Source of the DNA: an uncultured Ruminococcus sp.
GTDB taxonomy: Bacteria; Bacillota; Clostridia; Oscillospirales; Acutalibacteraceae
Assembly (NCBI GenBank): GCA_964575985.1
Contig: CAZNTP010000001.1
Location: 1-45,517 of the forward strand
Length of the DNA stretch: 45,517 nucleotides
Direction of reading: 5' to 3'
In this document: one piece after another, positions 1,705 through 36,124 of the stretch
How the letters are laid out: each line of letters starts with the position of its first letter
How positions within the stretch are numbered: position 1 is the first letter of the stretch
Translations under genes and position numbers: made by a program
Notes under the pieces: model-generated
Told to the model about the DNA's origin: nothing
The model's input: only the letters and a program-made list of their open reading frames with translations
Database searches by the model: none

Positions 1705-1736
1705 TAATAAGAAATAAATTTTGTGTGTAATAATTT

Positions 1737-11194: not shown

Positions 11195-11229
11195 AGAATT
11201 TGCTCCTTTCCATTGTTTGAATTTATAAA

Positions 11230-12816
11230 TTAATACGCTGTATCAAGAACTGCACCGTTATCATCCTTTTGATATAAGCGTATCCAATCCACAAAATACT
11301 CTGCGGGGAGGTCTGCGTGATAAATCTCGCAGCCATCATAAATCTTCCAAGTGCTAGACTGAGTAAATAAATGATTGTTAAAGATAATGTGAAGCTGTGC
11401 TTCCTCAAAGCCAATATTACCCGATTCACCGTTATCAAAGTTTTTGGTGATGTCATAGGTGTAGTAGGCTTCACCGTCGATATACATTATCATCTCGGTA
11501 GGTGTCCACTCGAAACCGTAAATGTGGTATTCATTTACAAGGTTTTCGGCATTCTCAAATGTATAGCCCTCACGCGAAGCATCTGTTTCATCAGCCCACA
11601 TAGTATGATCACCTAAGTGATACCATTTATGAACATTAGGCGCCAAGCTATCTATACTTGAGAAGACCTCAAAAATATCAACCTCAATAGTGTAATCAGC
11701 CTTGTATTTACCTATTGTTCCGTAGGAGTTTGCGCTGCTCATCCAGAAGCCAGGCCAACAGCCACGCTTAAAGGGCACCTTGGCGCGCATTTCGAGATAA
11801 CCGTATCTAAAACTCATTTCGTTCATTGAGGTTACCGACCAGGGACAAGCGAATTCCGCACCGCCGATTTTTGGGTTATAGTACCTTCTTGCAAACATCT
11901 TTAAATATCCGTTTTCAAGTCGGATTGCTTCCTCAGAATCGTCCAACGCGATTTCGGCATTTCCTGCCATTTTGGTTGATAAATTCCATTTCTTTGTGTT
12001 TAACTCGGCAGCCTCGAACTCGTCACCCCAAACATAAGTATAACCGTTGGGCTTTGTGGAAGAAAACTCCTGTTTTTCATCAAAAACATTAGCTTTGCCT
12101 TTAGTTCTTTCAAGTCTTGTGAAAAGCTCAACCGCTTTTTCGGTCATAGTGTCATGACCGCCGCCGAAAATGAGCTTGCCATCCTTAACCTCGGCAAAAT
12201 AACTGCCCTCTTCACACTTTTTCGTGTATCGGCTTGTATTGCCAATCAAAATTTCTTTTGATTTGGCGGCGGTGCTGTCATCCTTTATTTCGAGTTCAAC
12301 ACCGTCTGTCTTTTTAAAATAATCCTTTAGTGTTTCAGCTGCATATTTTAAAGTTTTGTTTCCCTTGGGATAAATTATGGTATATCCTTTAGGACCGTCC
12401 CAGCCTACGCTTTCGCTCTCGAAAGCGATATCGGCTTCATATTTTGAAGCCTCTATGCTCTCAACCGTGGGAATAAAGCGGTCTGTAACATAATTGTCAA
12501 CCTCATCTTCGGTTTCATCCTCAGAATCATCCTCCGCTTCACCGTCATTGTCTTCCGTATCGCTTTCGGTGTCACTCTCGGTTGTATCATCTGAACCGCT
12601 CTGTGTATCACTTTCAGTTTCATCCTCAGAGTCACTCTCGGTGTCGCTTGCGGTTTCATCCTCAGCACTACTATCGGTATTGTTTTCTGTAGTTTCGCTA
12701 TTAACCGATGAAGCATCCGTCGGTTTCTTTTGAGGTTTCTTCTCGTTATCACCGCAACCGCAAACCGCCAAAACGATTAAGAAACACAATAAAATACTTA
12801 GTATTCTTTTAAACAT
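11230..12816 (-). CDS. Lipoprotein with acidic S/T/D/E linker, alpha/beta domain and GH16 beta-glucanase domain
   Basis: 528-aa ORF with RBS AAAGGAG and lipobox LAVCGC. It has an acidic low-complexity segment (SDTESDSEDETESDT...). GH16 motifs: YVWGDEFEAAELNTKKW, GCWPGFWM, EVDIFE (rc of 11668-11685), YGFEWTP...DWIRLYQ. It is paralogous to the C-terminus of the 2590-aa protein. Confidence 0.9.
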   Translation of the reverse strand: MFKRILSILLCFLIVLAVCGCGDNEKKPQKKPTDASSVNSETTENNTDSSAEDETASDTESDSEDETESDTQSGSDDTTESDTESDTEDNDGEAEDDSEDETEDEVDNYVTDRFIPTVESIEASKYEADIAFESESVGWDGPKGYTIIYPKGNKTLKYAAETLKDYFKKTDGVELEIKDDSTAAKSKEILIGNTSRYTKKCEEGSYFAEVKDGKLIFGGGHDTMTEKAVELFTRLERTKGKANVFDEKQEFSSTKPNGYTYVWGDEFEAAELNTKKWNLSTKMAGNAEIALDDSEEAIRLENGYLKMFARRYYNPKIGGAEFACPWSVTSMNEMSFRYGYLEMRAKVPFKRGCWPGFWMSSANSYGTIGKYKADYTIEVDIFEVFSSIDSLAPNVHKWYHLGDHTMWADETDASREGYTFENAENLVNEYHIYGFEWTPTEMIMYIDGEAYYTYDITKNFDNGESGNIGFEEAQLHIIFNNHLFTQSSTWKIYDGCEIYHADLPAEYFVDWIRLYQKDDNGAVLDTAY

Positions 12817-12844
12817 ATATAATTTCTACTCCTTTCAGCGGTAA

Positions 12845-15800
12845 TTAAACTTTAGTTTTGCGTTTTTTTATAATAACCACAGCAACTACTGCTCCCGCGA
12901 TCAAAACTGCCAAAACCACAGCGGACAATATAATTAACCAAAGATAACTTGTCTTATCGGCCTTTTGGGTTTTCTTATTATTGTCCTTAGAATTAGATAC
13001 TTCTTTGGAGGATTCATCCTCGTCATCTTCTGTACCATCCTCAACCTCAGATTCCGTTTCGTCCTCATCCGAATCGTCAAACTCAGGCAACTCCTCATCG
13101 GTATCCTGCCAATAGTCATCAAAATCGAATTCATCGTCTTCCGTATCGGTCGGATTTGAAGTATCCTCAATATCTTCGTCATCCTTGCCAGCAGGTTGCT
13201 TGTCAGACTCATCCTTTTCATCCGAGTCCTTAATACCAACATATCTTAATGTTGTTACCATAAAATCATCAAAGAATATGCTGGCGTTACCTGTTGTTCT
13301 GATAGCTATCCACTGAGTTTTAGCCACAAACTTATAGGTAACCTCTATCCATTCGCCGCTACTTATACTATCGAACTTTTTAATCAGCTCAACACCCGAA
13401 TCGCTGTCATATATATCGGGCCAATCTTCGTGCACAAGGGATAAATCAAATGAAGTATCTTCGGTATCGGTGCTTACATAGAATTTCATTTCATACTCGG
13501 TGCCGACCTTTAGCAAATCTTCATAGAAAACAAGGAAATCAGCGTCGTAATCCTCATTTCCGATTCTATGCATACTTGAAACTCCGCCTTTTACATAGCT
13601 ACTGTCATAAGCAAAGGTTCCCGGACGGTAGTATTCATAATCCTCGCCGTAGTCATACATAGTATTTGCATAATCCTCGAAATCCTGAATAAAGCTGGTC
13701 TTTTCCCATTTAGCATAAAGTGTCTGATCAAAGTAGGGGAAGAAATCGTATGTATACTCTATATCAAGCTCTTTGTAAACAAACCAACCTGCAAACTTAT
13801 AGCCTTCTCTTTCGGGGGTTGGTAACTTTAATGCATCCTCAGGGTTACCGTACATATTCTCACATTCGGTACCGCCATTGCTTATGAATGTAATCTCAAT
13901 AGGCTTAGGATCGGTTGTGTTCGAGAATTTATCGGTTGTTCCAAATACTCTGAGCACAGGTGTTCCGTTAGGTAATGCGTACCAAACCTTATCGAAATCC
14001 AAGCCCTTCATATTCTTTTTAGCTGCATCGCCGCGCATCATAAGTACACTTATTCTTGTCTGGAAAGAGCTAAGACCTAAATATGTAGAATAGTTGTCAA
14101 CATAATCAATAGTAGAGAATGAGTTGGATATACCCGCTCTGCCCGCCGCAAGATAATCACTATCAGCAGTAGCGGAATAGCATCTTCTTACTGCGGCATT
14201 TGTATACTGTGATTGAAGCCAGGTATCGCCGATAATTGCGCCGCCCTTTAGACTAAAGTTGAGTTTACCCACAAAGTAGCAGTCTTCAATAACTACAGGT
14301 CTAGGCACACCGCAGACAATACCGCCTGTGCCTCTTCCCTCTAAATAAACCGATGTGCTACCAAAGCACTGTGAAATATAGGCAGGGTCACGAGGAGCGT
14401 TATCATCCTTATAGAATACAGAGCCCGCAATACCTGCAACATAGTTACCCTGTATCGATTCGTCGGTCATTTTAACTCTCATATATGCGTCAGATATACC
14501 AACCTTTTCGATAACGGCGCCATCGGTAATTGCTGAGAAGAGACCTGCATAAACAACCTCTGTTGTCTGCAACAGATCCAAATACATACCGTAAATTACA
14601 TGACCGTCGCCGTCAAAATGACCGTCAAAGCCGGTATCCTTTGAGGAAGAAGACCAATACCAATGGTTTGGATTGTTCTCTTTCCAATCTTCCTTTGAAA
14701 CGTCATTAAGATAAATATCAGCTGCTAGCTTGTAATATTTATCTCTGCAAACTGTAAGGTTAGAGCAAAGCTTTGCCAACTGCTCAGGGGTTTCGATAAT
14801 ATAGGGGTCATCCTTTGTTCCGTTACCGCTGGCATAGCTATCAGCCGCAGCACCCGACCAAATACCGCCGACTGTTCCTTTGTAGACCGTGAAATTGAGA
14901 ACGGGGAATCCGTTTTCGTCTTCAAACCACATATTTTTCCAGTCAAGCAAAGGCATATTAGTCTTAGCGTTCTCGCCCTTCATTAAAGCAATATCGCTTA
15001 TAATAGTAGGTTGAGCTATCTCAACATCGGTAAGCTTCTCTGAAGAGTAGCTATCCAATATCTTTCCTATATAATAGTTGGTAAAGGCTTCTTTTGCAAA
15101 GCTCTGATTTACAGAAACCGTTCTGTCTGTCGTAGCAGACCAATAAATACCGCCAACCATAGAGCCGTGTCTCTTGGGAGATTCAAAATGCCCCAAAGAA
15201 GCGGAATTTTCAATATATATCTTTCCGCTACCGTTAGCAACAAAGCCTGCGGCTGTGTTTGCAGTTTTACAAATTACGCTTTCGGTAATATAGCATCTGT
15301 CAAATCTTGCAGTTGCGCCTGCGGTTATCCAACCAATAAACGCAGCAGCAGAGCCTTCCTCGCTGTTAGCTTCTATGTAAGCGTCGGAAATAACAATTCT
15401 TTTGAATGATACGCTTCCGTCAGCGCGGGAAACCAAGCCTATGCTTGCTTTATCTGAGCCGCTATAATACATACCGTATACCGTATGACCTGCGCCGTCC
15501 AAATTACCTTGGAAAACACCGCCGGTGCCAACCCAGGACACAGCAAAATCGATCCAATTCTCTGCAGAAACATCATTCAGCTTAATGTCGGCAGTAAGCA
15601 CATAGTATTTACCGCTTGTAGCGTCGCCGTCGGTTGCCATTTTTGCAAGCTCGGCACCGTTAGAGATTTTGTAAGGATTCTTTTCGCTACCGTCACCGCC
15701 TGCAAAGCTATCGGCAATAGTACCGTTCCAAACGGTAGTATCCATATCGCCCATATCCATATATACAGGATAACCCGTCTCGGAAGGCTTCCATACATTT

Positions 15801-18800
15801 ATCCAATTAAGCTTTGGCATATTGGTTTTAGCCTGGGTGCCCTTCATTTTGTCAGTACTGTCAAGCCTTATAACGCCGTTTTCGGCAGTAAGTGTTGTTC
15901 CAACACCGTAGTTGCTCTTTGAACTGTCACTTATAGTCTGCTTACTGTTAAAAGGAATCTCGGCAGAAGCGAAGCTGTTGGTGATTATTTTGGTGGAATT
16001 CCAAACATTACCAATCATTGAAGCTTTATGTACCGGAGATTCTACAGTTCCAAGGAATGCCGAGCTATCAATTGTTATAGTACCGTTACCGTAAGCCACA
16101 AAGCCTGCGGCAGAGGTTTGAACCTCATCACTACAGGTTGAGATAACCTCAACACTTTCATTAGCGTATACCCTTGAAATATCAATATTGGAGCCCGAAG
16201 ATACAAATCCTATAAGCGCAGAAGCCGCATATCCCGAGGTTTCCATATGACAGCTTGAAAGGAATAAATTACTGATACTCACATTGCCCTTTACTCTTGT
16301 AAATAGACCTACATAATTTTCTGTACCTGTATAGTAAAGTCCTGAAACGGTATAACCTGCGCCGTCAAAATTGCCTTGGAAATAGTTTCCTGTTATTACC
16401 CATTTATTTGCATAATTTTTCCAATCGGCGTCAGTTACATCATTAAGCTTTATGTCATTAGCCAATACGTAATATTTGCCAGCGGTGGCATCACCGTCGG
16501 TTACCATTTTGGCAAGCTGTGCGCCGTTAGTAATTATATAAGGTGTAGCCTTTTCACCGTCACCGCCGGCAAAATCGGTTGCTACCGTGCCGTCCCAAAC
16601 AGTCGGGTCGATTATTACTTCGCCAACATATTCGGGATAACCTGTTTCGGTGGTTTTCCAAACAGTCTTCCAATTAAGGTTTGGCATATTGGTTTTAGCC
16701 TGGGTGCCCTTCATTAAGTCAGCACTGTCAAGCTTGGTAACTGTTCCGGTGTAATCCAGCGTTTCGGTTCCAACGCTATAACATTTCTCGACTGTGATTG
16801 AGTTTGTAGTGTGAGCAGTCATAGGAGCATCGGTTGCTGAAAAGCTATTTGTTATAGAACGGTCAGCTGCCGTATTTCCCCAAACATTTCCTATAAATGC
16901 ACCCTTGTATTCATTAGCCGTAATCGTTGCCATTACGGCAGAATCCTCAATATGAATCTTCGCTGTGCCGTAAGCCACAAAGCCTGCTATTCCCTTATCA
17001 CCTGATGCAATATTGTTAGCTAGTGTTACGGTTTCATCAACAATACATTTGCTAAATCTAAGGGTTTCTTTACCAAATCCCACCAACGCCGCAACTTTTT
17101 CTGTAGAATTTACATAAGCATTGCTTATACGCAAATTCTTAATAGTTGTATTGCTCGCCTGCGGGAAAAGTGCAAATATAGAAGAGCCATTATAGTAAAG
17201 ACCGTAAATGGTGTGTCCGTCACCGTCAAGATTGCCTACAAAAGCTATATTGTTTATATCGGCTCTATCGTACCAACGGTTAGGTGAATTTTCGGTCCAA
17301 TCAACCTGAGATATGTCGTTTAGCTTTATATCAGCTGTTAATTTGTAATAACCGCCCTCGGTATTTCCCTCTTTAACCATTTTGGCTAATTGTGACGGGG
17401 TTTCGATTAAATAAGGGTCTGTCTCTGTACCTGTACCGCCGGCAAATGCGGTTGCTACTGTACCGTCCCAAACAGTCGGGTCGATAACTACATCCCCCTT
17501 AAATTCAGGATAACCTGTTTCGGTGGTTTTCCAAACAGTCTTCCAATTAAGGTTTGGCATATTAGTTTTAGCCGCAGTGCCTTTCATTAATTCTACATTG
17601 CTCACATAAGTCGCCTGAACTACGGTAGAATCAAGTTGTTCGGCAGTATAACTGTTTGTAATTGAGGTTGCATAATAGTTTGTAAACGCTTCAATAGCAA
17701 AGCTGTTATTTATTGAAACATTTCTGCCGGCACCGCTTGACCAATAAATACCGCCAACCATAGAGCCTCTTCTATCGCGAGCAACACCCTGCGATTCAAA
17801 ATGGCCTAATGAAGCACAATTGGTAATATTAATCGTACCGCTACCATTAGCAACAAAGCCGCCGGCTACATTTGCAGCCACAACATTTACACTTTCGGTA
17901 ATGCGACATTTATCAAAGCTAACAGTCGAACCGCCGCTCAAATTACCTACAAAAGCAGAAGCAGCACCTTCAGAACTATGAGTATTCTTTATATAAGAGT
18001 CAGAAACTGTAAGGTTTTTAAAGGTTGCAGTTCCCTTTGTGCTTACAACCAAACCTGCGTTCCAACTGCCCGATACATCAAGGTAAATACCGTATACGGT
18101 ATAGCCTGCACCGTCCAAATTACCTTGGAAAGAAGCAGAGGTGAATTCACTGGCACCTACCCACATTGTAGCCGAATCGGTCCAATTAGTCTTGGATACA
18201 TCGTTAAGATATATATCTGCACCCAACACATAATATTTTCCGCTTGTAGCGTCGCCGTCTTTAACCATTTTGGCTAACTGCTCAGGGGTTTCGATTAAGT
18301 AAGGGTCTGTCTCTATACCTGTACCGCCCGCAAAATCAGTTGCAACTGTACCGTCCCAAACACCCTCTATATCAGATGGTGGTGTAACCTCAGTTTTAAA
18401 TATAGGATAACCGCTTGTCGTTGTAGCCCACACCTCATCCCAGTTAAGACCCGACATATTGGTTTTAGCAGCTTCACCCTTCATTAATTCTACATCACTT
18501 ACATAAGTCGCCTGAACTACAGTAGAATTAAGCTGTTCGGCGGTGTAGCTGTTTGTAATTGAGGTTGCAAAATAGTTAGTAAATGCTTCTTTAGCGAAGC
18601 TGTTATCTACATTAACAGCTCTTGTTCCCCATATACCTCCAACCATTGAACCTCTTCTGTCGCGTTTAACTCCAAGTGATTCAAAATGACCCAATGATAC
18701 AGAATTGGTAATATTAACTGTACCGCTACCGTTAGCAACAAAGCCACCTGCCACATTTGCGGCTATAGCATTTACGCTTTCTGTAACACGGCATTTATCA

Positions 18801-20200
18801 AAACTTACTGTTCCTGAATTTAGATTGCCGACAAAAGCCGAGGCGGCGCCTTCGTCGCTATGAGTACTCTTTATATAAGAGTCGGAAACTGTAAGGTTTT
18901 TAAAGGTTACATTTCCTTTTGCAGCAGGAACTAAACCTGCATTCCAACTGCCCGATACATCAAGATAAATACCGTATACGGTATAGCCCGCGCCATCTAA
19001 ATTACCTTGGAAAGAGGCAGAGGTAAATTCACTGGCACCTACCCACATTGTAGCCGAATCGGTCCAATTAGTCTTGGATACATCGTTAAGATATATATCT
19101 GCACCCAACACATAATATTTTCCGCTTGTAGCGTCGCCGTCTTTAACCATTTTGGCTAACTGCTCAGGAGTTTCGATTAAGTATGGGTCTGTCTCTGTAC
19201 CCGTACCGCCCGCAAAATCATCTGCAACAGCGCTCGACCAAACCTCACCCTTAACACCGTTAGTATCGCGATAGGTAGGATATCCGCTTTCGGTAGTCTG
19301 CCAAACACCCTTCCAATTAAGATTTGGCATATTAGTATTAGCCGCAGTGCCTTTCATTAAATCAGCATTGTCAAGCTTAGTAATAGTTCCGTTTGTAAGG
19401 TTTGTCGAACCAATAGTATAACAATTGGTTGCGGTGATTTTATTTGAATGATGGCCTGTCATAGGTACATCTGTTGCAGAAAAACTGTTTTTAACCGTAC
19501 GCGTACCCGACCAACAGTTACCGAAAAATGCACCTTTATATGATTCTGCTGTGATTGTTGCCATTACAGCGGAATCTTCTATATTAATATTAGCAGAACC
19601 GTAGGCGACAAAGCCTGCTAATCCCTTATCGCCAGATGTAATGTTATTAGAAAGCGTTACGGTTTCGTCAACAATACATTTCTTGAAATTAAGAGTACCT
19701 TGACCAAAGCTTATCAAGGCGGCAGCCTTCTCGGTAGAGTTAACATACGCATTACTGATACACAAATTTGTGATTGTTGTGTTGTTTGCCTGCGGGAAAA
19801 GAGCAAACATAGAACTACCTGTGTAGTAAAGACCGTGAATGGTATGTCCGTCACCGTCAAAATTACCTACAAACGCGGTATTGCTTATGTCAGCCCTGTC
19901 ATACCACTCGTTCGGTGAATTGCTTGCCCAATCAGCCTGCGATACATCGTTAAGGTAGATATCTGCGGTCAATTTATAATATCCGCCTGTAGTGTCTCCA
20001 CCCTTAACCATTTTGGCTAACTGCTCAGGTGTTGCAATTAAGTACGGGTCTGCCACTGTACCAGTACCACCCGCAAAATCAGTTGCAACTGTGCCGTCCC
20101 AAGCGTCTACCTGATTGGCATTAGCCAAAAAGGGTACGCCAATTACGGTACTTATAAGCAAAACAAACGCTGCCAAAACCGAAATTACTCTTTTCATCAT
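12845..20200 (-). CDS. Giant surface protein (about 2451 aa). Order: signal peptide, 7 GLUG-like ~290-aa modules, Listeria-Bacteroides-type repeat, beta-sandwich (CBM-like) domain, acidic linker, C-terminal transmembrane anchor
   Basis: The ORF is open to 20278, but the double ATG at 20195-20200 is preceded by GGAGAG and begins a classic signal peptide (MMKRVISVLAAFVLLISTVIGVPFLANA). It has the same module signature as the 2590-aa protein. The C-terminus is YLWLIILSAVVLAVLIAGAVVAVVIIKKRKTKV, with no LPXTG. Confidence 0.9.
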   Translation of the reverse strand: MMKRVISVLAAFVLLISTVIGVPFLANANQVDAWDGTVATDFAGGTGTVADPYLIATPEQLAKMVKGGDTTGGYYKLTADIYLNDVSQADWASNSPNEWYDRADISNTAFVGNFDGDGHTIHGLYYTGSSMFALFPQANNTTITNLCISNAYVNSTEKAAALISFGQGTLNFKKCIVDETVTLSNNITSGDKGLAGFVAYGSANINIEDSAVMATITAESYKGAFFGNCWSGTRTVKNSFSATDVPMTGHHSNKITATNCYTIGSTNLTNGTITKLDNADLMKGTAANTNMPNLNWKGVWQTTESGYPTYRDTNGVKGEVWSSAVADDFAGGTGTETDPYLIETPEQLAKMVKDGDATSGKYYVLGADIYLNDVSKTNWTDSATMWVGASEFTSASFQGNLDGAGYTVYGIYLDVSGSWNAGLVPAAKGNVTFKNLTVSDSYIKSTHSDEGAASAFVGNLNSGTVSFDKCRVTESVNAIAANVAGGFVANGSGTVNITNSVSLGHFESLGVKRDRRGSMVGGIWGTRAVNVDNSFAKEAFTNYFATSITNSYTAEQLNSTVVQATYVSDVELMKGEAAKTNMSGLNWDEVWATTTSGYPIFKTEVTPPSDIEGVWDGTVATDFAGGTGIETDPYLIETPEQLAKMVKDGDATSGKYYVLGADIYLNDVSKTNWTDSATMWVGASEFTSASFQGNLDGAGYTVYGIYLDVSGSWNAGLVVSTKGTATFKNLTVSDSYIKNTHSSEGAASAFVGNLSGGSTVSFDKCRITESVNVVAANVAGGFVANGSGTINITNCASLGHFESQGVARDRRGSMVGGIYWSSGAGRNVSINNSFAIEAFTNYYATSITNSYTAEQLDSTVVQATYVSNVELMKGTAAKTNMPNLNWKTVWKTTETGYPEFKGDVVIDPTVWDGTVATAFAGGTGTETDPYLIETPSQLAKMVKEGNTEGGYYKLTADIKLNDISQVDWTENSPNRWYDRADINNIAFVGNLDGDGHTIYGLYYNGSSIFALFPQASNTTIKNLRISNAYVNSTEKVAALVGFGKETLRFSKCIVDETVTLANNIASGDKGIAGFVAYGTAKIHIEDSAVMATITANEYKGAFIGNVWGNTAADRSITNSFSATDAPMTAHTTNSITVEKCYSVGTETLDYTGTVTKLDSADLMKGTQAKTNMPNLNWKTVWKTTETGYPEYVGEVIIDPTVWDGTVATDFAGGDGEKATPYIITNGAQLAKMVTDGDATAGKYYVLANDIKLNDVTDADWKNYANKWVITGNYFQGNFDGAGYTVSGLYYTGTENYVGLFTRVKGNVSISNLFLSSCHMETSGYAASALIGFVSSGSNIDISRVYANESVEVISTCSDEVQTSAAGFVAYGNGTITIDSSAFLGTVESPVHKASMIGNVWNSTKIITNSFASAEIPFNSKQTISDSSKSNYGVGTTLTAENGVIRLDSTDKMKGTQAKTNMPKLNWINVWKPSETGYPVYMDMGDMDTTVWNGTIADSFAGGDGSEKNPYKISNGAELAKMATDGDATSGKYYVLTADIKLNDVSAENWIDFAVSWVGTGGVFQGNLDGAGHTVYGMYYSGSDKASIGLVSRADGSVSFKRIVISDAYIEANSEEGSAAAFIGWITAGATARFDRCYITESVICKTANTAAGFVANGSGKIYIENSASLGHFESPKRHGSMVGGIYWSATTDRTVSVNQSFAKEAFTNYYIGKILDSYSSEKLTDVEIAQPTIISDIALMKGENAKTNMPLLDWKNMWFEDENGFPVLNFTVYKGTVGGIWSGAAADSYASGNGTKDDPYIIETPEQLAKLCSNLTVCRDKYYKLAADIYLNDVSKEDWKENNPNHWYWSSSSKDTGFDGHFDGDGHVIYGMYLDLLQTTEVVYAGLFSAITDGAVIEKVGISDAYMRVKMTDESIQGNYVAGIAGSVFYKDDNAPRDPAYISQCFGSTSVYLEGRGTGGIVCGVPRPVVIEDCYFVGKLNFSLKGGAIIGDTWLQSQYTNAAVRRCYSATADSDYLAAGRAGISNSFSTIDYVDNYSTYLGLSSFQTRISVLMMRGDAAKKNMKGLDFDKVWYALPNGTPVLRVFGTTDKFSNTTDPKPIEITFISNGGTECENMYGNPEDALKLPTPEREGYKFAGWFVYKELDIEYTYDFFPYFDQTLYAKWEKTSFIQDFEDYANTMYDYGEDYEYYRPGTFAYDSSYVKGGVSSMHRIGNEDYDADFLVFYEDLLKVGTEYEMKFYVSTDTEDTSFDLSLVHEDWPDIYDSDSGVELIKKFDSISSGEWIEVTYKFVAKTQWIAIRTTGNASIFFDDFMVTTLRYVGIKDSDEKDESDKQPAGKDDEDIEDTSNPTDTEDDEFDFDDYWQDTDEELPEFDDSDEDETESEVEDGTEDDEDESSKEVSNSKDNNKKTQKADKTSYLWLIILSAVVLAVLIAGAVVAVVIIKKRKTKV
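13700..13900 (-). other. Listeria-Bacteroides (Flg_new-type) repeat within the 2451-aa protein
   Basis: ITFISNGGTECENMYGNPEDALKLPTPEREGYKFAGWFVYKELDIEYTYDFFPYFDQTLYAKWE matches the familiar pattern: v-F..nGG ... p.P.r.GY.F.GW ... LYA.W. Confidence 0.6.
17465..19228 (-). repeat. Tandem duplication (2 x 882 bp = 2 x 294 aa) of one module inside the 2451-aa gene
   Basis: Modules 2 and 3 share long identical peptide runs (ETDPYLIETPEQLAKMVKDGDATSGKYYVLGADIYLNDVSKTNWTDSATMWVGASEFTSASFQGNLDGAGYTVYGIYLDVSGSWNAGLV). At the DNA level, 18144-18286 and 19026-19168 are identical by hand comparison (about 140 nt, offset 882). Flanks are roughly 90 percent similar. Confidence 0.8.
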
Positions 20201-20311: not shown

Positions 20312-20371
20312 ATTTTAACATATATTCGCTATAGAACAATGTAAAAAATTAATTATAATATGTCAAAAAAG
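20312..20371 (-). promoter_or_regulatory. Promoter plus tandem direct-repeat activator-type site upstream of the giant-protein unit
   Basis: The minus strand carries two direct repeats (plus-strand ATGTAAAAAATT at 20339-20350 and ATGTCAAAAAAG at 20360-20371, 21 bp apart). These are followed by -35 TTGTTC (rc of 20334-20339), a 16-nt spacer ending in TGT, and -10 TAAAAT (rc of 20312-20317). The core 37 bp is 32/37 identical to 39109-39145. Confidence 0.5.
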
Positions 20372-20407: not shown

Positions 20408-21349
20408 TCATAAAAATATCGGATTAGTCCATGCCTTTTTACCGTTTTTATCAACAATACTGATTCTCACGTAATCATAGGGTCCTGCCCAATAGTTTGC
20501 GATATCAAACTCAGCGTGGGTTATATTGCCCTCCTCATCCACAGTAACGCGGTTAGGATGCATATCACTATGTAAACGCACACGGGCTACAGGCGAGCAA
20601 TCTATAACGGCCTTACCGTCTTCAACATAAAAATCATAAATTTCGGGGCCGCAGGAAGAATAAAACTCGCCGTTTTCAAGAGCTTTTAATATAGAGTTTA
20701 TATCCTTATCAGCCTTTACCATAACCCAGCCCTTACAAAGCTCTTTATAAGAATGGGCATCGTCTGTTGCTACACCGTACCATATTTTGCCTTGACCTAA
20801 AATTTCATCCCAATAAGCCGCATCACTGTCACAGTCGGCAGAAAGCGCACTGCCGCTGTTCCAGATTTCCATAGCAAAGTTGCCTTTTTGGGTTTCGAAG
20901 TGCTTTGCGCTTGTGCTACTCCACTGAGGATGGCAAAGAATTGTCAGGTTTTTCTTTTCATGAATTTTATCAAGCCATGGCTGATACTCTTTTGAATTAG
21001 GTTTGAAGCCCCAATCAAACTTCTGGTCGTGACAGAATCCGTTACCGTCCTCCTTAGCAGGACCGATACAAACCGTGTGGAAGCAACGGAAACCGTGGCC
21101 TTTTATAAGGTCGTTACCGTATTCCATACCGGGTATTACGAGCACCTCGGTTTCGGGAGCATAAGCTTCCATAGTATAAATCTGATGGTCGGTAATTGCC
21201 ATAAAATCATAACCCTGACCTTTGGCATAAACTATAACCTCTTCGGGTGTGAGCTTACCGTCAGAACGGGTAGTATGGCAATGAAGACCGCCTTTTAGAA
21301 ATTTTTTGTCTTTATTTATAAAAGCCTGCTGTCTTTTCAAGGAAATCAA
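20408..21349 (-). CDS. PHP-domain metal-dependent phosphoesterase
   Basis: 313-aa ORF. PHP signature GGLHCHTTRSDGKLTPEEVIVYAKGQGYDFMAITDH, plus later His/Asp clusters (ILCHPQW, ATDDAH). The start codon is TTG (rc of 21347-21349), directly after an in-frame TAG. The SD is weak. Confidence 0.75.
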   Translation of the reverse strand: MISLKRQQAFINKDKKFLKGGLHCHTTRSDGKLTPEEVIVYAKGQGYDFMAITDHQIYTMEAYAPETEVLVIPGMEYGNDLIKGHGFRCFHTVCIGPAKEDGNGFCHDQKFDWGFKPNSKEYQPWLDKIHEKKNLTILCHPQWSSTSAKHFETQKGNFAMEIWNSGSALSADCDSDAAYWDEILGQGKIWYGVATDDAHSYKELCKGWVMVKADKDINSILKALENGEFYSSCGPEIYDFYVEDGKAVIDCSPVARVRLHSDMHPNRVTVDEEGNITHAEFDIANYWAGPYDYVRISIVDKNGKKAWTNPIFL

Positions 21350-21366
21350 CCCCTAGTGAGATAGAA

Positions 21367-22734
21367 TTAAAATAAAAGTGTGATAATAGAATGTGGCTTC
21401 ATTATATTTTTAGTGCAACCACCGTTATACCTAAGTGTCGCATATTGCTGTTTATCTGAAGTATTTATAACAACACAAACCTTACTGCCATCGGGATTAA
21501 CAAAGGCACAAGTATATAAATCCTTGCTGTGTTTGGTTGTGGCAACCCTTACAGCGCCGCGCTTTACATATTTTGAGAAATGACCTATGTAGTAATAAAT
21601 CGGAGTAACCTCAAGTTCATTTTTTTCTGTATCATAAAGAATAGGCGCATAGCAACCGTCCTCTTTATTCTCAAAAAGGTCACCCTCGGTTTTGGCTGTT
21701 CTGTTGTGGTATGGACCGCCATACTGATCAAGAAGCAAATTCCAATCACAAGAGGCTATTTCATAGTTGTTGAAGTTTTCACAAATCTCAATGCCGTATT
21801 TCTCGGCAAGCACATTTACATCCTCAGTAATAGGTCCGCAGAACTCACCGCAAACAAGGGGTTTATGAAGCTGCTCATGAACAAGACGAAGTCCTTCAAA
21901 ATGGTCGCCTGAGTACCAATGGTGAGCCACCGCCCAAACCCTTTTATTTACTCTCTCATTGCTTAAAATTTTCTTTGCACGGTCATAAACACACTCTTTA
22001 TTGTGGTCCCAAATCATAATTTTTATATCGCTAAGCCCCTCTTCGTCGAGAGCTGCTATCAGATATTTATCAATAAACTCGGCCTCATCCTCAGGTGAAT
22101 AATAACAGCTTTCCCAAGTCTGTATTGCCTTAGGCTCGTTCTGAATAGTAATGGCGCTGATTTTAACGCCCTCTTTAGCCATAGCCTTTATATACTTGGC
22201 GTAATAATGAGCCCAAACCGACTTATACTCCTCTAAAAGCTTACCGCCCTTTAGCATATTATTGTTATCCTTCATAAAGGCCGGCGGACTCCAAGGGGAC
22301 GCGAAAAGCACAATTTCCTCGTCGCAGTACTCTAAAGCATCCTTTAGAAAGGGCAAAATGTACTTCTTTTCTCTATCTAAATTAAAACTTTCAAGGGTTT
22401 TGTCGCCCTCTTCTACAGAAGAATAAATGCTGATTGAAAAATCGCAGGAATTGATATGGCTTCTGCCAAAATTGTAGCCAATACCTTTTTCGCGGTCGAA
22501 ATAAAGCTCTAAAAATGTGCGTTTTTGTTCATCACTTAATAAAGAATAGTTATATGCGGCAGACTCGGTAAAAGCACCGCCAAAGCCTAAAACCTCTTGG
22601 TATTTTACGTCATCAAAAACATTTACTATTCCCCACTCGGTATCGCTTGGAAAATTATTAAGCTCTACCTGCTCTTGAGCAAAGTAAATATCCTCTTTTG
22701 GACAAGTTTCAATTTTCTTTATGAATTTTTCCAT
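21367..22734 (-). CDS. Glycoside hydrolase family 30 (glucosylceramidase / beta-1,6-glucanase-like), no signal peptide
   Basis: 455-aa ORF. Motifs: GFGGAFTESAA near the N-terminus, ITIQNEP (acid/base Glu), FASPWSPPAFMK, and a beta-sandwich tail. Confidence 0.8.
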   Translation of the reverse strand: MEKFIKKIETCPKEDIYFAQEQVELNNFPSDTEWGIVNVFDDVKYQEVLGFGGAFTESAAYNYSLLSDEQKRTFLELYFDREKGIGYNFGRSHINSCDFSISIYSSVEEGDKTLESFNLDREKKYILPFLKDALEYCDEEIVLFASPWSPPAFMKDNNNMLKGGKLLEEYKSVWAHYYAKYIKAMAKEGVKISAITIQNEPKAIQTWESCYYSPEDEAEFIDKYLIAALDEEGLSDIKIMIWDHNKECVYDRAKKILSNERVNKRVWAVAHHWYSGDHFEGLRLVHEQLHKPLVCGEFCGPITEDVNVLAEKYGIEICENFNNYEIASCDWNLLLDQYGGPYHNRTAKTEGDLFENKEDGCYAPILYDTEKNELEVTPIYYYIGHFSKYVKRGAVRVATTKHSKDLYTCAFVNPDGSKVCVVINTSDKQQYATLRYNGGCTKNIMKPHSIITLLF

Positions 22735-22781
22735 TCTTTACACCCACTTTTAAAACTAATTCCTATAGCAAATTATTTCTT

Positions 22782-23954
22782 CTAATACGGCATTACGGCA
22801 TCTTCGCCGGGACCTAGGTTATATTTGCGGCATACACTGCGGTTTACCGAAAATACATCAATACAGGTTTCCCTTTCGGTACCCTCGGTACGTTCCTTCA
22901 TTTGCACCCACGGAAGTTCCTTATTGGCTGCGGGACCGCCCCAGCCGCCCCAGGCATTTTCACAGCCCGTTGCCACCTGCCATAAATCAATATCCTCACT
23001 GTAATGAACAAGCTCGGCATGCTGATGCCCAAAATTGTATAAAACAATTTTTCCGTTTTTAATACCGCTAAAATCGGCATTTACAGCGATTTCCTTACCG
23101 TTCATATCGGTATATATAAAATCATATTTTCCGCGGGACTGGAACGCTTTAAATACTTTTCTTAAATTTTCACCGTTTTTGCAGTTATCGCTTGTATCAT
23201 TTTCAATTCCCATATGGGATAAAATTATGTAATCCCAACCGTCATCAGCCCCCAAAGCCACATTACAAAGCCAATCAAGCTGTTCAAAGGTATACCAGAA
23301 TCTTGGAAGTCTGTTTGTAAGCTCGGTAACAGTTCCGTTCTCATCAAAAGGCTTTCTCATATCCATTGTATCCAGTACAATAATACGGGTCTTTTTATTT
23401 TCTAAATCAAAATAAAAATATTTCGAATAAGGGTAATTCTTGTCGTGAACTCTTTTTTCACTAAAGGGATAAAGGTCCATAACCTTTTTAGACCAATCCA
23501 TATCGCTTAAAAGCCATTCACATCTAAGCTCGGAATAGTTTGGATTAAGTGTCTGAAAGCCGTTATCATCATGATTGCCAAATGCCAAAATTACAGGCTT
23601 TTGACTATTTTGAAGAGGCTTAAATGCGCGGTTAAGAGTATCCAAAACCGCCTGTTTGCCTCTTACGTTATAAGCATTAAGCGCATCGCCCGCAAAGGCT
23701 ATAAAATCAATATTTTCATTATTATTGGCAAAGCTTACCGCCTCTTCAAGATGGGACTGAAGCATAGAAATTCGTTTTTCAACCTTTTCCTCGGCTTCGA
23801 ATACGGTAAGAGAACCGTCCTCAGCTTTGCGCAAATATTCGTCTATATGGCAATCTGCAAATACAAGATAATTAACAGAATTCTTGCCGTTTTCATTAAT
23901 TTCTTTACCGATTAAATCGAATTTTTCTTTTATCTTATATGCCATTTTATTCAC
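22782..23954 (-). CDS. Calcineurin-like metallophosphoesterase
   Basis: 390-aa ORF with the ordered motifs FADCHID, FAGDALN, FGNHDD, ILSHMG and FGHQHAE. Confidence 0.8.
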   Translation of the reverse strand: MNKMAYKIKEKFDLIGKEINENGKNSVNYLVFADCHIDEYLRKAEDGSLTVFEAEEKVEKRISMLQSHLEEAVSFANNNENIDFIAFAGDALNAYNVRGKQAVLDTLNRAFKPLQNSQKPVILAFGNHDDNGFQTLNPNYSELRCEWLLSDMDWSKKVMDLYPFSEKRVHDKNYPYSKYFYFDLENKKTRIIVLDTMDMRKPFDENGTVTELTNRLPRFWYTFEQLDWLCNVALGADDGWDYIILSHMGIENDTSDNCKNGENLRKVFKAFQSRGKYDFIYTDMNGKEIAVNADFSGIKNGKIVLYNFGHQHAELVHYSEDIDLWQVATGCENAWGGWGGPAANKELPWVQMKERTEGTERETCIDVFSVNRSVCRKYNLGPGEDAVMPY

Positions 23955-23960
23955 TCCCGA

Positions 23961-25172
23961 TTATTCACTTATAAACTTAGTCCAACCCTTGATTTTAAAC
24001 ACACAAAGAGCCGTAGCAAGCAATGCTATTATGCACCAGCTTATAAGCACCGCATTCCAACCCATACCGTCTGCTAATGCAGCAAAACCGTAGGACGATA
24101 CCGACGCACCTACATAGGTAAAGGCATTAAGTATTCCCGAAAAAGTAGAAACCATACCGTATTTTGAAAAATTCTTAGGGATAAGACCAATTAGCATATG
24201 GTTAACACCGTGCATACAGCCCGAAATCATAGCCGCCGAAACTATTGTAACAATAGCAGGAACCTTAAGTCCCAGTCCCATAGGCACAGTAGCTATAAAA
24301 GCTATACCGAACATAATGGATGCCGTTTTTAATTCATTTTTAATTCTATGATAAATTGTGTTTGCAGTGATTACACTTACCATACTCAAAACGGGCAATA
24401 CCGCTGTGCTTAAAACAGACGAGGACTCGCTGAGCCCGAACTTTTCATTCACAAGTGACGGAAGCCAGGTTTGGATACCGTCCCTTAAAATGCCCTGCAG
24501 TGCGATAATTATAAATATAGGAATAAGTCCCGCCAAGGAAATAAGACCCCAAGCAGAAATAGTTTTCTGACTTTGAGTTTTAGCCGTTGCCTCTGCTTTA
24601 CCCATTGGTATATTTCTTGTGGCATAGCCCCAGACAAGCATCATAATTATACCAAAAACCGCCATACATCTGAAAACATTTCGCCAAACCGTGACTTCCA
24701 ATATAAAAGGAACAAAAAGATATACAAATATTGTTCCTACAGATGCGGAAAGGCTTACAGCGGTTATTGCATCGGAATATTTTTCTGTTCCAACCTGTTC
24801 TGAAACAAAACGTGCGAGTGGCGGCCAAAGCATTGCCTGACACACACCGTTAATACACCAAAGAACAGTAATCAGCTTCATACTTGAACAGAATGAAACT
24901 AAAATATTAACGAGAATTGTTCCAAGCATTGCAGTGCTTATCATTTTAACGGGGGATATTTTATCCCCTATAAAGCCACAGATAACCTGTCCCACACCGT
25001 ATGTAATAAAGCTGCCCGTAACTGCTGCAGATGCCATTGTATTGGTTATTTTAAGGTCGGATACTATTGCTACCAAGGAAGCCGAATAATCAAGCCGCAT
25101 AGCATAGCTGAAAAAATAAACCAAAAAGCCAAGCGCCACTACTGTTTTATATGAAAGTGTTTTATTTGCCAT
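23961..25172 (-). CDS. MFS transporter
   Basis: 403-aa ORF with about 12 hydrophobic segments arranged 6+6 around a central charged loop (GKAEATAKTQSQK). Substrate is not assignable by eye. Confidence 0.8.
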   Translation of the reverse strand: MANKTLSYKTVVALGFLVYFFSYAMRLDYSASLVAIVSDLKITNTMASAAVTGSFITYGVGQVICGFIGDKISPVKMISTAMLGTILVNILVSFCSSMKLITVLWCINGVCQAMLWPPLARFVSEQVGTEKYSDAITAVSLSASVGTIFVYLFVPFILEVTVWRNVFRCMAVFGIIMMLVWGYATRNIPMGKAEATAKTQSQKTISAWGLISLAGLIPIFIIIALQGILRDGIQTWLPSLVNEKFGLSESSSVLSTAVLPVLSMVSVITANTIYHRIKNELKTASIMFGIAFIATVPMGLGLKVPAIVTIVSAAMISGCMHGVNHMLIGLIPKNFSKYGMVSTFSGILNAFTYVGASVSSYGFAALADGMGWNAVLISWCIIALLATALCVFKIKGWTKFISE

Positions 25173-25190
25173 TTTAAAGCTATCCCTTTG

Positions 25191-25976
25191 CTAAATATAT
25201 TTGTAAGGTGTACCTATAAAGCCCACCTGACTGAAATCCTCAAAATTATGACGCACAATATAGTCTATATATGAGGTTATCATCTGAGCGGTTAAAATAT
25301 ATCCTGCCGCATTCATATGCCCGCCCACAAAAAATTTCTTTTTAAACTCACTGTCATATTTAGGGCTATGGGTTCTAAGGTCAATAACATAGGTGTTGTC
25401 AAATAACTCTGCCATTTCTTTAAGAAGCCTTGCATGATTATCACCGTCAAGATTATCTATTCCGTTAGGTAGGGTTACAAGGAAAAACTTTGCATCAGGC
25501 TGAATAGTTTTAAGGCGCTGAATAATTCTTGCATAATAGCCTGTAAATGTAGGCTTATTGTTTTCGGGATTTTCTAAATCTATGTCCGAAACCTCGCCTA
25601 ATTCTACCTGTTTTGTGTACATATCATTTACACCCAAGGCCAGAATATAAGCCTGACATTTCTTTTCGTCGGTCCAGACACCGCAAGCGTCAGCAAAGCT
25701 TTCCATAAACCATTTTGCCGACATTCCGCCACGGGAAAAATTATAAACCTTTATGCCCGCGTTTCTTGCCATATACTGTCCCCAGGAATAATCATAAAAA
25801 TCGTGATAACCGTAATTGCCGTCCTTATCGCGCGATTCGTGCTCGCCCGAAGAAAGACTGTCCCCTATGCAACCGATAGTTCTGAAAATACGCGCATAAC
25901 CGCCGTCGTATACAATTCGGTCTAACGGTTTTTCATCCTCACTATATAAAAGCTTTTCTAAATCCATTATAAACAC
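25191..25976 (-). CDS. SGNH/GDSL-family hydrolase (esterase), cytoplasmic
   Basis: 261-aa ORF. Block I IGCIGDSLSSG, block II FSRGGMSA, block III LGVNDM, block V GGHMNAAGY. The start abuts the stop of the upstream gene (25976/25977). Confidence 0.8.
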   Translation of the reverse strand: MFIMDLEKLLYSEDEKPLDRIVYDGGYARIFRTIGCIGDSLSSGEHESRDKDGNYGYHDFYDYSWGQYMARNAGIKVYNFSRGGMSAKWFMESFADACGVWTDEKKCQAYILALGVNDMYTKQVELGEVSDIDLENPENNKPTFTGYYARIIQRLKTIQPDAKFFLVTLPNGIDNLDGDNHARLLKEMAELFDNTYVIDLRTHSPKYDSEFKKKFFVGGHMNAAGYILTAQMITSYIDYIVRHNFEDFSQVGFIGTPYKYI

Positions 25977-27038
25977 CTACTCTTTAAGTATACAACCTAT
26001 ATTTCCCTCAATTATGCAGTTGGTATTATTTTCTTCTATAAGATTGTCAATAAGCGCACCGTTGTGCATTGCATTTTCCTTAACTATTGTATTCTCGCAA
26101 TTTTTAATAATCAGGCCGTAATCGGGGCTTACGGGAAGTGTCCCGCCATCGCCTGCGCCCACCTTCATAGTGTTACCCACAAGAACACAGCCTGTGCAAC
26201 CGTCCATAATTACGTGCGAGCTCTTTAAAGGGTCGGTATGGGGTTTATCCACATAACAACCGCCACGTCTGAAAATATTACCCGTAATAGTGGCAAGGTT
26301 AGGACCAACGCCATCCTTACCTAACTCTAAAGCCGGACCGAATGTGCGGTCAAAGAAATTACCTGTAATATTGAAACTGTCTCCCCTCGGGAATATAAAT
26401 CCGCCCTTTTTATTCCATTCAACACGGTTACCCGTGGCTGTAATAGCGGCAACATATCCACTTACGGTAATACCACCACTGCCATTATTAGCAAACCAGT
26501 TATCTGTAAGAAAAGCATCCCATCCACTGAAATTAAGTCCCGCGCCGCCATTGGTAATAATAAGGCATCGCCTTACAGAGAAACACCAGATATGGTCAAA
26601 ATGCAGACCGTCTCCCGAGAAAAGCGATATTCTGCAATCGTCTATATTAGGTGTATCCTCTTGACCGCCGCCGTTTGCCACGGGCCACTGGAGTCTTATT
26701 CCGTGAATATTCTTTCCAAGCTTTTTGCCATTAAAAGACATACCGCTTATCTTACAACCAAATGCTCCGCTTATATCAAGCAGACACTCAGCATTTTCAT
26801 TTGTCAGAATAAAAGCAGAAGCACCGTCATTACGGTAGGTCCAGGAGGAACAACCCTCCAAGGAAACACCCTCACCGCGAAGCTTAAGGTCTCCTTTAAC
26901 ATTATACCTGCCGGGCGGAACTACTATTTTTCCCATACAGTCACGTGCGGCATCCATAGCCTTTTGTATGGCTTCGGTACAATCGGCAACACCGTCACCT
27001 ATTGCGCCGAATTCGGTAATGTCAAATACATTTTTCAT
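25977..27038 (-). CDS. Right-handed parallel beta-helix protein (pectate-lyase-3 / GH28-GH55-like fold), no signal peptide
   Basis: The ORF track extends to 27224, but that stretch overlaps the upstream gene. The ATG at 27036-27038 (MKNVFDITEFGAIGDGVADCTEAIQKAMDAA, a typical N-terminus for this family) has GGTGGGGA upstream and leaves a 25-nt gap. Repetitive G-x-x-I/V-x-N beta-helix rungs follow. Confidence 0.7.
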   Translation of the reverse strand: MKNVFDITEFGAIGDGVADCTEAIQKAMDAARDCMGKIVVPPGRYNVKGDLKLRGEGVSLEGCSSWTYRNDGASAFILTNENAECLLDISGAFGCKISGMSFNGKKLGKNIHGIRLQWPVANGGGQEDTPNIDDCRISLFSGDGLHFDHIWCFSVRRCLIITNGGAGLNFSGWDAFLTDNWFANNGSGGITVSGYVAAITATGNRVEWNKKGGFIFPRGDSFNITGNFFDRTFGPALELGKDGVGPNLATITGNIFRRGGCYVDKPHTDPLKSSHVIMDGCTGCVLVGNTMKVGAGDGGTLPVSPDYGLIIKNCENTIVKENAMHNGALIDNLIEENNTNCIIEGNIGCILKE

Positions 27039-27063
27039 TGTTATCCCCACCGTTCCGATTAAC

Positions 27064-27969
27064 TTACTCTTCAAAACAATTATACTGTGTAAGTATAAAT
27101 TTACCAATATCATAAAGTATAGCTTCAAATCTTTTTCTGAATTCCACAGGCAGCTGCAAGCAACGTGTATCACATTTAAATTTACGACGCCTGAATACTC
27201 CGTAAGGCACGTTATCGGACTCAAAGGTAAAATAACCGTTATAGCCTATATCTATTAATCCGTGCATTACCGAATCTATATTGGTAATACCCATAAACGG
27301 CATTATATGATGGTCATCATTACCCATATTATCCTGAATATGAAGTGCCAAAACATCCTTGCCTAAAATTTTTAAGGCCTCGTGTTGAGGTAATTCCTGT
27401 AAATTTCCGTGACCTACATCCCAACAACCTTTAAGAAGCGGGTGATTAATATAATCTATCAATGATTTTTGGTCTTCAGCAGAGTCTACCCAATAACAAC
27501 CCGGAACACACATTTTATTGAAATTTTCAGTAAGAATGGTTATTCCTGATTTTTCAGCAACTTTAAGTAAATCCTCATAAAAAATCTTGTTTTTATAAAA
27601 GGTTTCTTCCTTACTCAAACCGGTTTGGTAACCGGAGTGAACCACGATATTAGGTATACCCAAATAGGCCGCCGCTTCTATGCTTCGCTTAGTATCGAGA
27701 ATAAATTGCTCATACTCACCATCCATAACCAATGGTCTGCCCATTGGTGAATGAGCCTGAACAAAGCTAACCCCTAGCTTTTGGGCAAAATCCTTTAGTT
27801 CATTGCCATACGCTTTCCAATCGTCGCTATAAAAGCCTGTACGGGTTCTGCAATCTAACCCAAAAGAATAATCTATGTATTTAAAACCCGCTTCTCTTAT
27901 GGCGGCAATACTTTCTTTTGCATTAAAACCGTATGCCGCGAAATCACCTGTGGTTGTTGCCAATTTCAT
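27064..27969 (-). CDS. Sugar phosphate isomerase/epimerase (xylose-isomerase-like TIM barrel)
   Basis: 301-aa ORF with the family pattern: AGFKYIDYSF, VQAHSP, IVVHSG, ILTENF, WDVGHGN. Confidence 0.7.
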   Translation of the reverse strand: MKLATTTGDFAAYGFNAKESIAAIREAGFKYIDYSFGLDCRTRTGFYSDDWKAYGNELKDFAQKLGVSFVQAHSPMGRPLVMDGEYEQFILDTKRSIEAAAYLGIPNIVVHSGYQTGLSKEETFYKNKIFYEDLLKVAEKSGITILTENFNKMCVPGCYWVDSAEDQKSLIDYINHPLLKGCWDVGHGNLQELPQHEALKILGKDVLALHIQDNMGNDDHHIMPFMGITNIDSVMHGLIDIGYNGYFTFESDNVPYGVFRRRKFKCDTRCLQLPVEFRKRFEAILYDIGKFILTQYNCFEE

Positions 27970-28000
27970 TTTTAATCACCGTCATCTTTACAGATTTTGA

Positions 28001-28987
28001 TTATCCTGTAATACCAACGCGGTCGATACTTTCAATAAACCAGCGCTGTAAAATCATATAAACTATAAGCATAGGTGTTACAAAAAGCACACAGCCAGCC
28101 ATCTGGAATGCCATTGTTTCGGGAGTTTCGGGGTTCATATAATAGCCCTTGGTCGAAAGCGCTGTGGGCAACAAATCAAGCTTCATAGCAAGCGGATAAT
28201 CATCGTTAAGATACATTGAGCAAAGCTGATAATCATTCCAATGCCATATAAGTGAGAACACAACTACTGTTATAATTACAACACCCGAAGACGGCAATGC
28301 TATACGAAGGAAGGTTTTAACAGGGCCTGCGCCGTCAATCCAAGCCGCCTCTTCAAGCTCTTTGGGGAAGCCTGAAAAGAACTGTATATATATGAATATT
28401 ATTACACCTGACCTTAATCCCATTGAGAATATAGAGGGCAAATAAAATGCCGCCGCGCTACCAAGAATATTAGGTCTTAAATCAATGCCTGTCAGTTTAT
28501 CGAACAACCCTAAGATACCTAAAACATCCATTTTAGAGTAATTTGCCATTCGGGGAATAAGCACCATCATATCTGGAACCAGAATTGTAAGGAATAATAT
28601 ACCGAGCATTATACCCTTACCCTTAAACTTAAAGCGCGCAAAGCCGTAGGCGGTAAAGGCGCAAGCCGCAACCTCAATAAGAGCGCTTATAATTTCATAA
28701 ATAAAGGTTGATTTAAGCGCTTTTCCGTAGTCGAGAAGCTCAATTGCTATGTCATAATTGAACTTGGGACTTATAGCCTCGGGAATCCAGACTCTAGTTG
28801 AGTTAAAGAAACCGTTACGGCTTACAAGAGAGGTCACCACCATATAAAGCAGGGGATAAATAATAACAAAGCCTATAGATATAAGAAGTATCATTCTGAA
28901 AGCAAACATTGCCGTGTTTGGCAAATTGCGCTTTAGGGTCTCTTTATTAAGGTTTAAGGAGATTTTTTTGTTGTTAAATAAGCTCAT
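28001..28987 (-). CDS. Carbohydrate ABC transporter permease (pair 2, MalG-like)
   Basis: 328-aa ORF with 6 TM segments and the EAA loop EEAAWIDGAGPVKTFLRIALP. Confidence 0.85.
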   Translation of the reverse strand: MSLFNNKKISLNLNKETLKRNLPNTAMFAFRMILLISIGFVIIYPLLYMVVTSLVSRNGFFNSTRVWIPEAISPKFNYDIAIELLDYGKALKSTFIYEIISALIEVAACAFTAYGFARFKFKGKGIMLGILFLTILVPDMMVLIPRMANYSKMDVLGILGLFDKLTGIDLRPNILGSAAAFYLPSIFSMGLRSGVIIFIYIQFFSGFPKELEEAAWIDGAGPVKTFLRIALPSSGVVIITVVVFSLIWHWNDYQLCSMYLNDDYPLAMKLDLLPTALSTKGYYMNPETPETMAFQMAGCVLFVTPMLIVYMILQRWFIESIDRVGITG

Positions 28988-28999
28988 ATTATCCCCTCC

Positions 29000-32142: not shown

Positions 32143-32158
32143 AAGTAATTCCTCCTAT

Positions 32159-34270: not shown

Positions 34271-34283
34271 ACATTTCTCCCCT

Positions 34284-35189: not shown

Positions 35190-35198
35190 CTATACCAC

Positions 35199-36110: not shown

Positions 36111-36124
36111 GTAACCTTCCTCCT

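Follow-up and report, generated by a model that had tools for sequence, protein, structure and literature searches.

In Escherichia coli, AraC reads the tandem half-sites araI1 and araI2 at araBAD, which lie two helical turns apart; the proximal one overlaps the −35 box, the regulator makes class-II contact with sigma, and araC is divergent from its operon. Likewise, the XylS site at the Pm promoter overlaps the polymerase site. The XylS dimer was described to bind two 15-bp direct repeats separated by 6 bp (PMC5481539), using a seven-helix DNA-binding domain in which helices 3 and 6 are the recognition helices (PMC5481539, PMC9722767). Among regulators of sugar genes, BgaR of Clostridium perfringens is reported as a lactose sensor (PMC7598627), MtlR is described at PmtlE of Pseudomonas fluorescens with two similar 15-bp blocks upstream of the −35 (PMC4514859), and XydR of Clostridium cellulolyticum is described to bind upstream of a hemicellulase cluster and of one distant gene (PMC3572039). 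The mechanism class is textbook knowledge, and the operator sequence presented here is itself undescribed in the literature searched. This search, with RegPrecise, most subscription papers and supplements outside its scope, yielded no description of the motif or the regulon, so that an earlier in-silico prediction may exist; a BgaR site sequence for comparison was not found either.

In this work, we analysed a 45,517-nt stretch of DNA (the window) that carries a short direct-repeat element twice on its minus strand. Judged by sequence comparison, this element is very probably a class-II operator of the AraC/XylS type that serves a glycan-foraging regulon; we propose a precise and testable operator, together with its regulon, in an uncultured clostridial lineage of the gut for which we found no account of sugar regulation. 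Copy A lies at 20335–20369 (distal box 20360–20368, TTTTGACAT; proximal box 20339–20347, TTTTTACAT) and copy B, 18,774 bp apart and in the same orientation, at 39109–39143 (distal box 39134–39142, TTTTCACAT; proximal box 39113–39121, TTTTTACAT), with 32 of 35 bases identical. A first-pass annotation had recognized both copies and their common orientation, but its 37-bp length and 32/37 identities add two mismatched flanking bases to a conserved stretch of 35 bp; its direct repeats were confirmed in both copies as ATGT-n-AAAA boxes with a 21-bp period. For comparison, the best ungapped 35-mer match reached 27 in dinucleotide shuffles of both gaps (n = 500) and 31, never 32, when up to 1,500 pairs were sampled at random among 154 AT-rich upstream regions of this genome. 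The 60-bp flanks of the two copies match at just 14 of 60 positions on each side, and hence the element is isolated and not part of a duplicated promoter region. Contrary to what had been stated, the two gaps are not the only long intergenic ones, since a third sizeable gap of 166 bp before the AraC gene is free of the element. The genome-wide motif scan that had been suggested was run on the window's own genome (G000; 1.73 Mb in 178 contigs, 84% complete), in which the strict two-box pattern occurs exactly three times; the third strong copy (28/35 in a mismatch scan of the whole assembly) is found at G000:C10:23240-23274.

Read along the transcribed strand, a site consists of TTTTNACAT, 12 nt, TWTTYACAT and then TG, and the box period is 21 bp in all three G000 sites as well as in all 19 aligned sites of other genomes. 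The TTG of a −35 box is formed by the final T of the proximal box plus the two bases after it, and the remaining three −35 bases are free. The proximal repeat had been thought to abut the −35; in fact it overlaps the first −35 base, and the conserved stretch takes in the TTG. In the usual pattern, TG-n-TATAAT or a close variant follows 17 bp after the −35. Predicted promoter core B (39085–39113, minus strand) has the −35 TTGTTA at 39113–39108, a 17-bp spacer and TG-n-TACAAT with its −10 at 39090–39085. Predicted core A (20312–20339, minus strand), read from the consensus, has a weak −35 TTGTTC at 20339–20334, a 16-bp spacer and TG-n-TAAAAT with its −10 at 20317–20312, next to an alternative TATAAT at 20312–20307. 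Both copies are phased to a −35 and an extended −10, as noted before, but not at quite the same position, given spacers of 16 and 17 bp. Class-II geometry, i.e., a proximal site overlapping or abutting a weak −35 at a fixed distance to the −10, was found with 22 nt between proximal box and −10 in copy B and the C10 copy and with 21 nt in copy A.

From sequence, spacing, conservation and linkage to one AraC clade we infer that a dimeric AraC/XylS-family activator would bind the element, its two monomers placed on direct repeats two helical turns apart and the proximal one overlapping the poor −35 box (TTG and three free bases). With such a poor −35 covered by the proximal site, polymerase would be recruited to the extended −10 only once a sugar effector activates the regulator. 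The site would thereby join the giant surface proteins, an ABC transporter/enzyme unit and the secreted protein encoded on contig C10 in one regulon, whose natural reader would be the AraC clade that holds two branches, A and B, the latter including the gene in the window.

The unit behind copy A (1816–20200, minus strand) runs giant protein, GH16, giant protein, solute-binding protein: a 2451-aa repeat-rich surface protein with a C-terminal membrane anchor, a GH16 lipoprotein, a 2590-aa repeat protein with CE2/GDSL, dockerin-like and GH16 domains, and the binding protein. Both giant proteins (3422–11194 and 12845–20200) consist of repeats of ~290 aa with a DNA spacing of 860–890 bp and no good Pfam match, and relatives carry many paralogues of them that vary in repeat number and passengers (GH16, CE2, metallophosphoesterase, BspA LRR). 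The binding protein of this unit is ~90 aa longer than its orthologues, and 12-bp tandem repeats at 3020–3259 encode a low-complexity Ser/Glu/Lys/Thr linker in it. Behind copy B (20408–38995, minus strand) follow a large solute-binding protein, four ABC permeases, Yip1-domain and DUF5696 proteins, a xylose-isomerase-like TIM barrel, a beta-helix protein, a GDSL esterase, an MFS transporter, a metallophosphoesterase, GH30 and a PHP/CehA hydrolase. The large solute-binding protein has five paralogues in G000 (C1, C2, C4, C6 and C9) and up to 13 per congener; the operator is absent from the four other G000 copies. Divergent from copy B, a GH36 alpha-galactosidase and a polysaccharide-deacetylase-like gene occupy 39336–42394 on the plus strand. 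At its margins, the window holds an ORF that is truncated at the contig end and contains Gly-X-Y codons of the collagen type (1–560) and two long inverted-repeat pairs with arms of 30–33 nt (44977–45436), which are REP- or MITE-like and resemble an intergenic stretch in G014:C25.

The C10 copy precedes a 1210-aa secreted protein with a dockerin-like end and otherwise no clear family, whose homologues in G060 (67%) and G189 (69%) lie inside or downstream of motif-led gene runs. Together they span C10:19595-23274, next to an RpiR regulator, kinase, NanE-like epimerase, MurQ-like etherase and GH42 cluster. Structure matches of the GH16, GH30 and beta-helix proteins leave the substrate ambiguous: laminarinases and other GH16 enzymes are equally near to GH16, GH30 resembles glucosylceramidase-like and beta-1,6-glucanase proteins, and the beta-helix protein could not be assigned. 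A motif-led operon in G189 starts with a trehalase-like gene. The regulon groups genes of obscure role, namely the repeat-rich giants, the Yip1/DUF5696 partners of the ABC transporter, the phosphoesterases and the beta-helix protein, and can thus aid the search for the substrate.

Close homologues of the window AraC occur in 14 of 212 congeneric genomes, with 17 gene copies including that of G000; closer clade members come from metagenome bins labelled Acutalibacteraceae, Oscillospiraceae, Ruminococcaceae, Ruminococcus, Eubacteriales and Clostridia. A quick tree of the window AraC, all 33 other AraC proteins of G000 and 28 homologues (G141 left out) places the window protein in a 16-row clade with an SH-aLRT of 99, which no other G000 AraC protein joins. 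Branch B comprises the window gene and its orthologues in G060 (84%) and G189 (~77%), and branch A the rest. The motif was found, phased to a −10, in the gap directly divergent from the AraC homologue at 10 of 11 testable branch-A loci, the exception being the gap in G140, a basal clade member. Near the likewise basal G041 gene, which lies inside an operon, there was no motif; contig ends truncate the loci G087:C110 and G068 as well as the operon head of G189:C29. Both of two further loci picked by AraC homology alone, near-identical to each other, carry a site at score 27.0, one of them with a second site before a metallophosphoesterase-GH30 pair, and none of 16 loci whose AraC genes are basal or more distantly related has a site scoring at least 8. 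Altogether, 19 sites in 10 other genomes (six in G060) stand at operon heads of a shuffled, split gene set, before homologues of the GH16, solute-binding, giant-protein, beta-helix, metallophosphoesterase, TIM-barrel and GDSL/MFS/PHP operon genes. The motif thus moves with operon heads of homologous genes and is tied to one AraC clade, in support of the proposal of one regulon; likewise, its period, its phasing to −35 and −10 and the clade linkage bear out the class-II geometry that had been suggested.

These 19 training sites are pattern matches that either face an AraC homologue or whose next gene or operon is a homologue of a locus gene, whereas all other matches were excluded from training. 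A G000-derived pattern that included the −10 served to find them in the first place; their conservation is hence partly circular, and the genomes are kin. Three controls are free of this dependence. Outside the pattern, the G of the −35 TTG and the two bases upstream of the distal box are conserved in 19/19 sites, the T and G of the extended −10 in 18/19 each. When the −10 was omitted, the pattern matched 27 times in the 212 genomes, compared with nine for a reversed control; 17 of these matches fall into 9 of the 14 clade genomes and 10 into 9 of the 198 others. TA[TC]AAT stands exactly 22 nt downstream of 15/17 clade matches compared with 0/10 of the others, a difference whose Fisher significance is inflated by kinship. 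A matrix built from other genomes only, again without the −10, scored copy B at 40.0, copy A at 32.5 and the C10 copy at 24.9, followed by a next-best 16.4 in G000, which is also the maximum of the reversed-matrix control there. The bare two-box pattern was not enriched in 151 congeneric genomes, with 9 matches vs ~33 for the reversed control by hand count; three matches were in G000 and one in G060. The orthologous solute-binding protein clusters of G004, G010, G014, G018 and G023 have no gene of the AraC clade and no clean motif at the promoters inspected.

Several congeners (e.g., G060:C3:82043-83000) carry a related motif of direct repeats, TTTTTACAAAAA ... TTTTTTACATTT, that likewise stands 22 nt upstream of a −10; it faces another AraC gene and precedes an operon of FAD-oxidase, 4Fe-4S protein, aldolase, PfkB kinase and KduI/IolB. 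G000 has this FAD-oxidase/KduI operon on C33, but no close homologue of its AraC was found in G000. The related motif reaches 13–19.7 on the same matrix, so that cross-talk may occur or the C10 site may be misassigned. Furthermore, a well-phased copy with a score of 25.2 at G060:C53:51715-51772 precedes a gene without homologue in the window locus, which may also belong to the regulon of G060.

In five relatives (G024, G060, G087, G189 and G207), a branch-A AraC gene lies on the far side of the motif gap with GH36 behind it, and in four cases the deacetylase comes next; as a rule, both enzyme genes are downstream of the AraC paralogue and point the same way. No clade member besides the window AraC came up when the 84% complete G000 was searched with a profile. 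In 10 of 12 such gaps (G095 and G126 being unclear), 120–133 nt separate the branch-A promoter from the motif, and in the window a promoter TTGTTT-17-TATAAT occupies this very position (39250–39278, plus strand), 130 nt from copy B and directly before GH36. The simplest reading is that branch A was deleted in G000 and that GH36 then inherited the branch-A promoter. A presumed remnant of the lost gene before the GH36 ribosome site was discarded, as its 6-base likeness to the end of that gene is too short. Copy B had been placed in a divergent region shared with the alpha-galactosidase operon, which it indeed adjoins; since the alpha-galactosidase promoter lies 130 nt off on the other strand and corresponds to that of the missing paralogue, the element is not placed for class-II activation of GH36.

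The window AraC/XylS-family gene (746–1649, minus strand) encodes a cupin ligand domain (PF02311, E 1.9e-14) and a double HTH. Its native ORF (813–1649, 278 aa) leaves the conserved frame after residue 257, and the conserved C-terminal 42 aa continue in another frame that ends at 746. The +1 frameshift site is a run of eight A at 877–884 (minus strand): in the alignment, the frame shifts right after a conserved FKK, and the G-x-S-P-x-x-Y-R motif and the tail of the 295-aa orthologues follow in another frame. HTH_18 is matched over positions 1–72 of 80, compared with 1–80 in the intact G060 orthologue, and in a model of the latter (mean pLDDT 81) the lesion affects the last part of recognition helix 6 and the whole of helix 7. 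With these parts lost, DNA binding of the window AraC as assembled is likely reduced or abolished, as far as the model tells. The regulator gene noted earlier at the locus end (813–1649) thus belongs to the correct clade, but as assembled it is a damaged member of the AraC/XylS family, and the tightest sub-branch of the motif is the paralogue absent from the assembly. The gene's own upstream region (1676–1792, minus strand), read by eye, contains a terminator-like hairpin (1749–1792) and then a promoter-like TTGAAG-17-TATAAT (1704–1676); it has no operator copy, similar to both close orthologues.

Among 88 G000 loci compared with orthologues of at least 55% identity, the window AraC is the sole frame change, and two other loci have in-frame stops. 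Runs of eight A or eight T are rare in the assembly (71, vs 1,028 runs of seven). Both observations argue against general homopolymer error, with a local error remaining possible. A contig from a relative ~90% alike spans 743–1643 with 900 bases vs 901 and one gap; as three DNA runs hold this relative, they do not separate an assembly error from a true frameshift. An intact branch-B protein had no match in the metagenome scan. Within the clade, 2 of 15 copies not cut by contig ends are broken, the window AraC and a branch-A gene in G141 (G141:C257:900-1790) that has an internal TGA at a conserved tryptophan.

As only branch B was found in G000, and this in frameshifted form, the regulon would probably be uninduced or leaky unless the lesion is an assembly error or branch A is unassembled. 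In the sequenced population it may thus be switched off, leakily induced or orphaned, as far as the sequence allows to say. We may further speculate, although we consider it rather improbable, that the A8 run turns a costly ~40-kb programme with two surface proteins of >2,400 residues reversibly ON and OFF, either by slipped-strand change of the DNA or by transcriptional slippage that yields a trickle of full-length activator. After paralogue loss, the regulon would then depend on one slippery gene, copy A would drift to an activator-independent promoter (its unique TTGACA), and the stop in G141 would reflect repeated selection for shut-off. The broken activator and the lost paralogue are the unusual points of the locus; a lesion that is both real and reversible would be a phase switch that controls glycan foraging at the level of its regulator.

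Within the operator reading, only branch A might read the site, with the window AraC serving other targets and the G000 sites orphaned (or branch A unassembled), which we regard as possible but the less probable variant. In the genomes searched, no intact branch-B gene was found that lacked a branch-A companion, and consequently binding by branch B is deduced from paralogy and location only. All eight genomes that have branch A alone and the motif carry the latter beside branch A, several residues distinguish the recognition helices of branch A from those of branch B, the gap at 39.1 kb retains the branch-A promoter with the gene gone, and two of the three G000 sites are off the usual pattern, copy A with a spacing one base shorter than usual and the C10 copy lacking an otherwise invariant G. 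Against such a restriction, branch B ends a motif-led unit in both G060 and G000, the two other branch-B genomes have the most matches (10 and 5, vs 0–2 elsewhere in the clade), and both branches form the single clade of the quick tree.

That the repeats are read not by an AraC protein but by an activator encoded elsewhere, for example a LytTR- or OmpR-type response regulator, appears very unlikely. Such response regulators, too, use tandem repeats near the −35, helically phased direct repeats are not unique to AraC proteins, and the sole local AraC in G000 is broken; yet the window showed neither a sensor kinase nor a response regulator, and through rearrangements the motif follows one AraC clade gene by gene. 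It is hardly tenable, moreover, that the element itself is a sigma-A promoter, with the distal box as −35 (TTGACA in copy A) and the proximal box as −10 (TACATT) 17 bp apart. A consensus scan indeed gives TTGACA-17-TACATT (10/12) for copy A and TTCACA-17-TACATT (9/12) for copy B. However, the would-be G of TTGACA is C or T in 19/19 sites of other genomes, the would-be first T of the −10 is T in just 9/19, and a separate, better −10 with a TG extension stands at a fixed 22 nt downstream; TTGACA-17-TACATT may act as a secondary promoter in copy A only. Recombination or insertion scars that flank an integrated segment of 18.8 kb are practically negligible as an explanation, for although the copies bracket exactly one gene block in the same orientation, a third copy lies on another contig, no recombinase was found in the window, and the copies of relatives head operons in many gene orders, phased to the −10.

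We hence return to the AraC/XylS-type operator and its described counterparts. Like BgaR, the regulator would be a carbohydrate-sensing AraC protein of a Firmicute, and its N-terminal domain is closest to that of BgaR (PDB 6NWH/6NWJ; Foldseek E 7e-10, sequence E 1e-6). This likeness to a lactose sensor is a weak hint at a disaccharide effector; with ~22% identity BgaR is not an orthologue and its effector is not transferable, and our best, still weak, guess is a di- or oligosaccharide, namely a galactoside or beta-glucoside. MtlR, whose site geometry also agrees with that of the element, is likewise an AraC-type activator of sugar genes, but of proteobacterial origin. XydR, an AraC-type activator of a glycan cluster and a distant gene, is the nearest clostridial precedent, but it is a two-component response regulator; for both, a match to our motif is not established. 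The element shares with XylS/Pm the 21-bp period (15 + 6 bp), and the regulator the seven-helix double-HTH domain and the N-terminal effector domain (PMC5481539). In contrast to XylS/Pm, its sequence is of the type TTTTYACAT instead of TGCA-N6-GGNTA, the promoter has an extended −10 of the Gram-positive sigma-A type, the effector would be a sugar and not benzoate, and several operons would form the regulon. AraC domains are among the matches of the regulator profile, and with E. coli AraC the locus shares the tandem half-sites, the −35 overlap and, at branch-A loci, a regulator gene divergent from its operon; unlike in E. coli, the site sequence is unrelated, and the proposed regulon covers surface proteins together with ABC transport.
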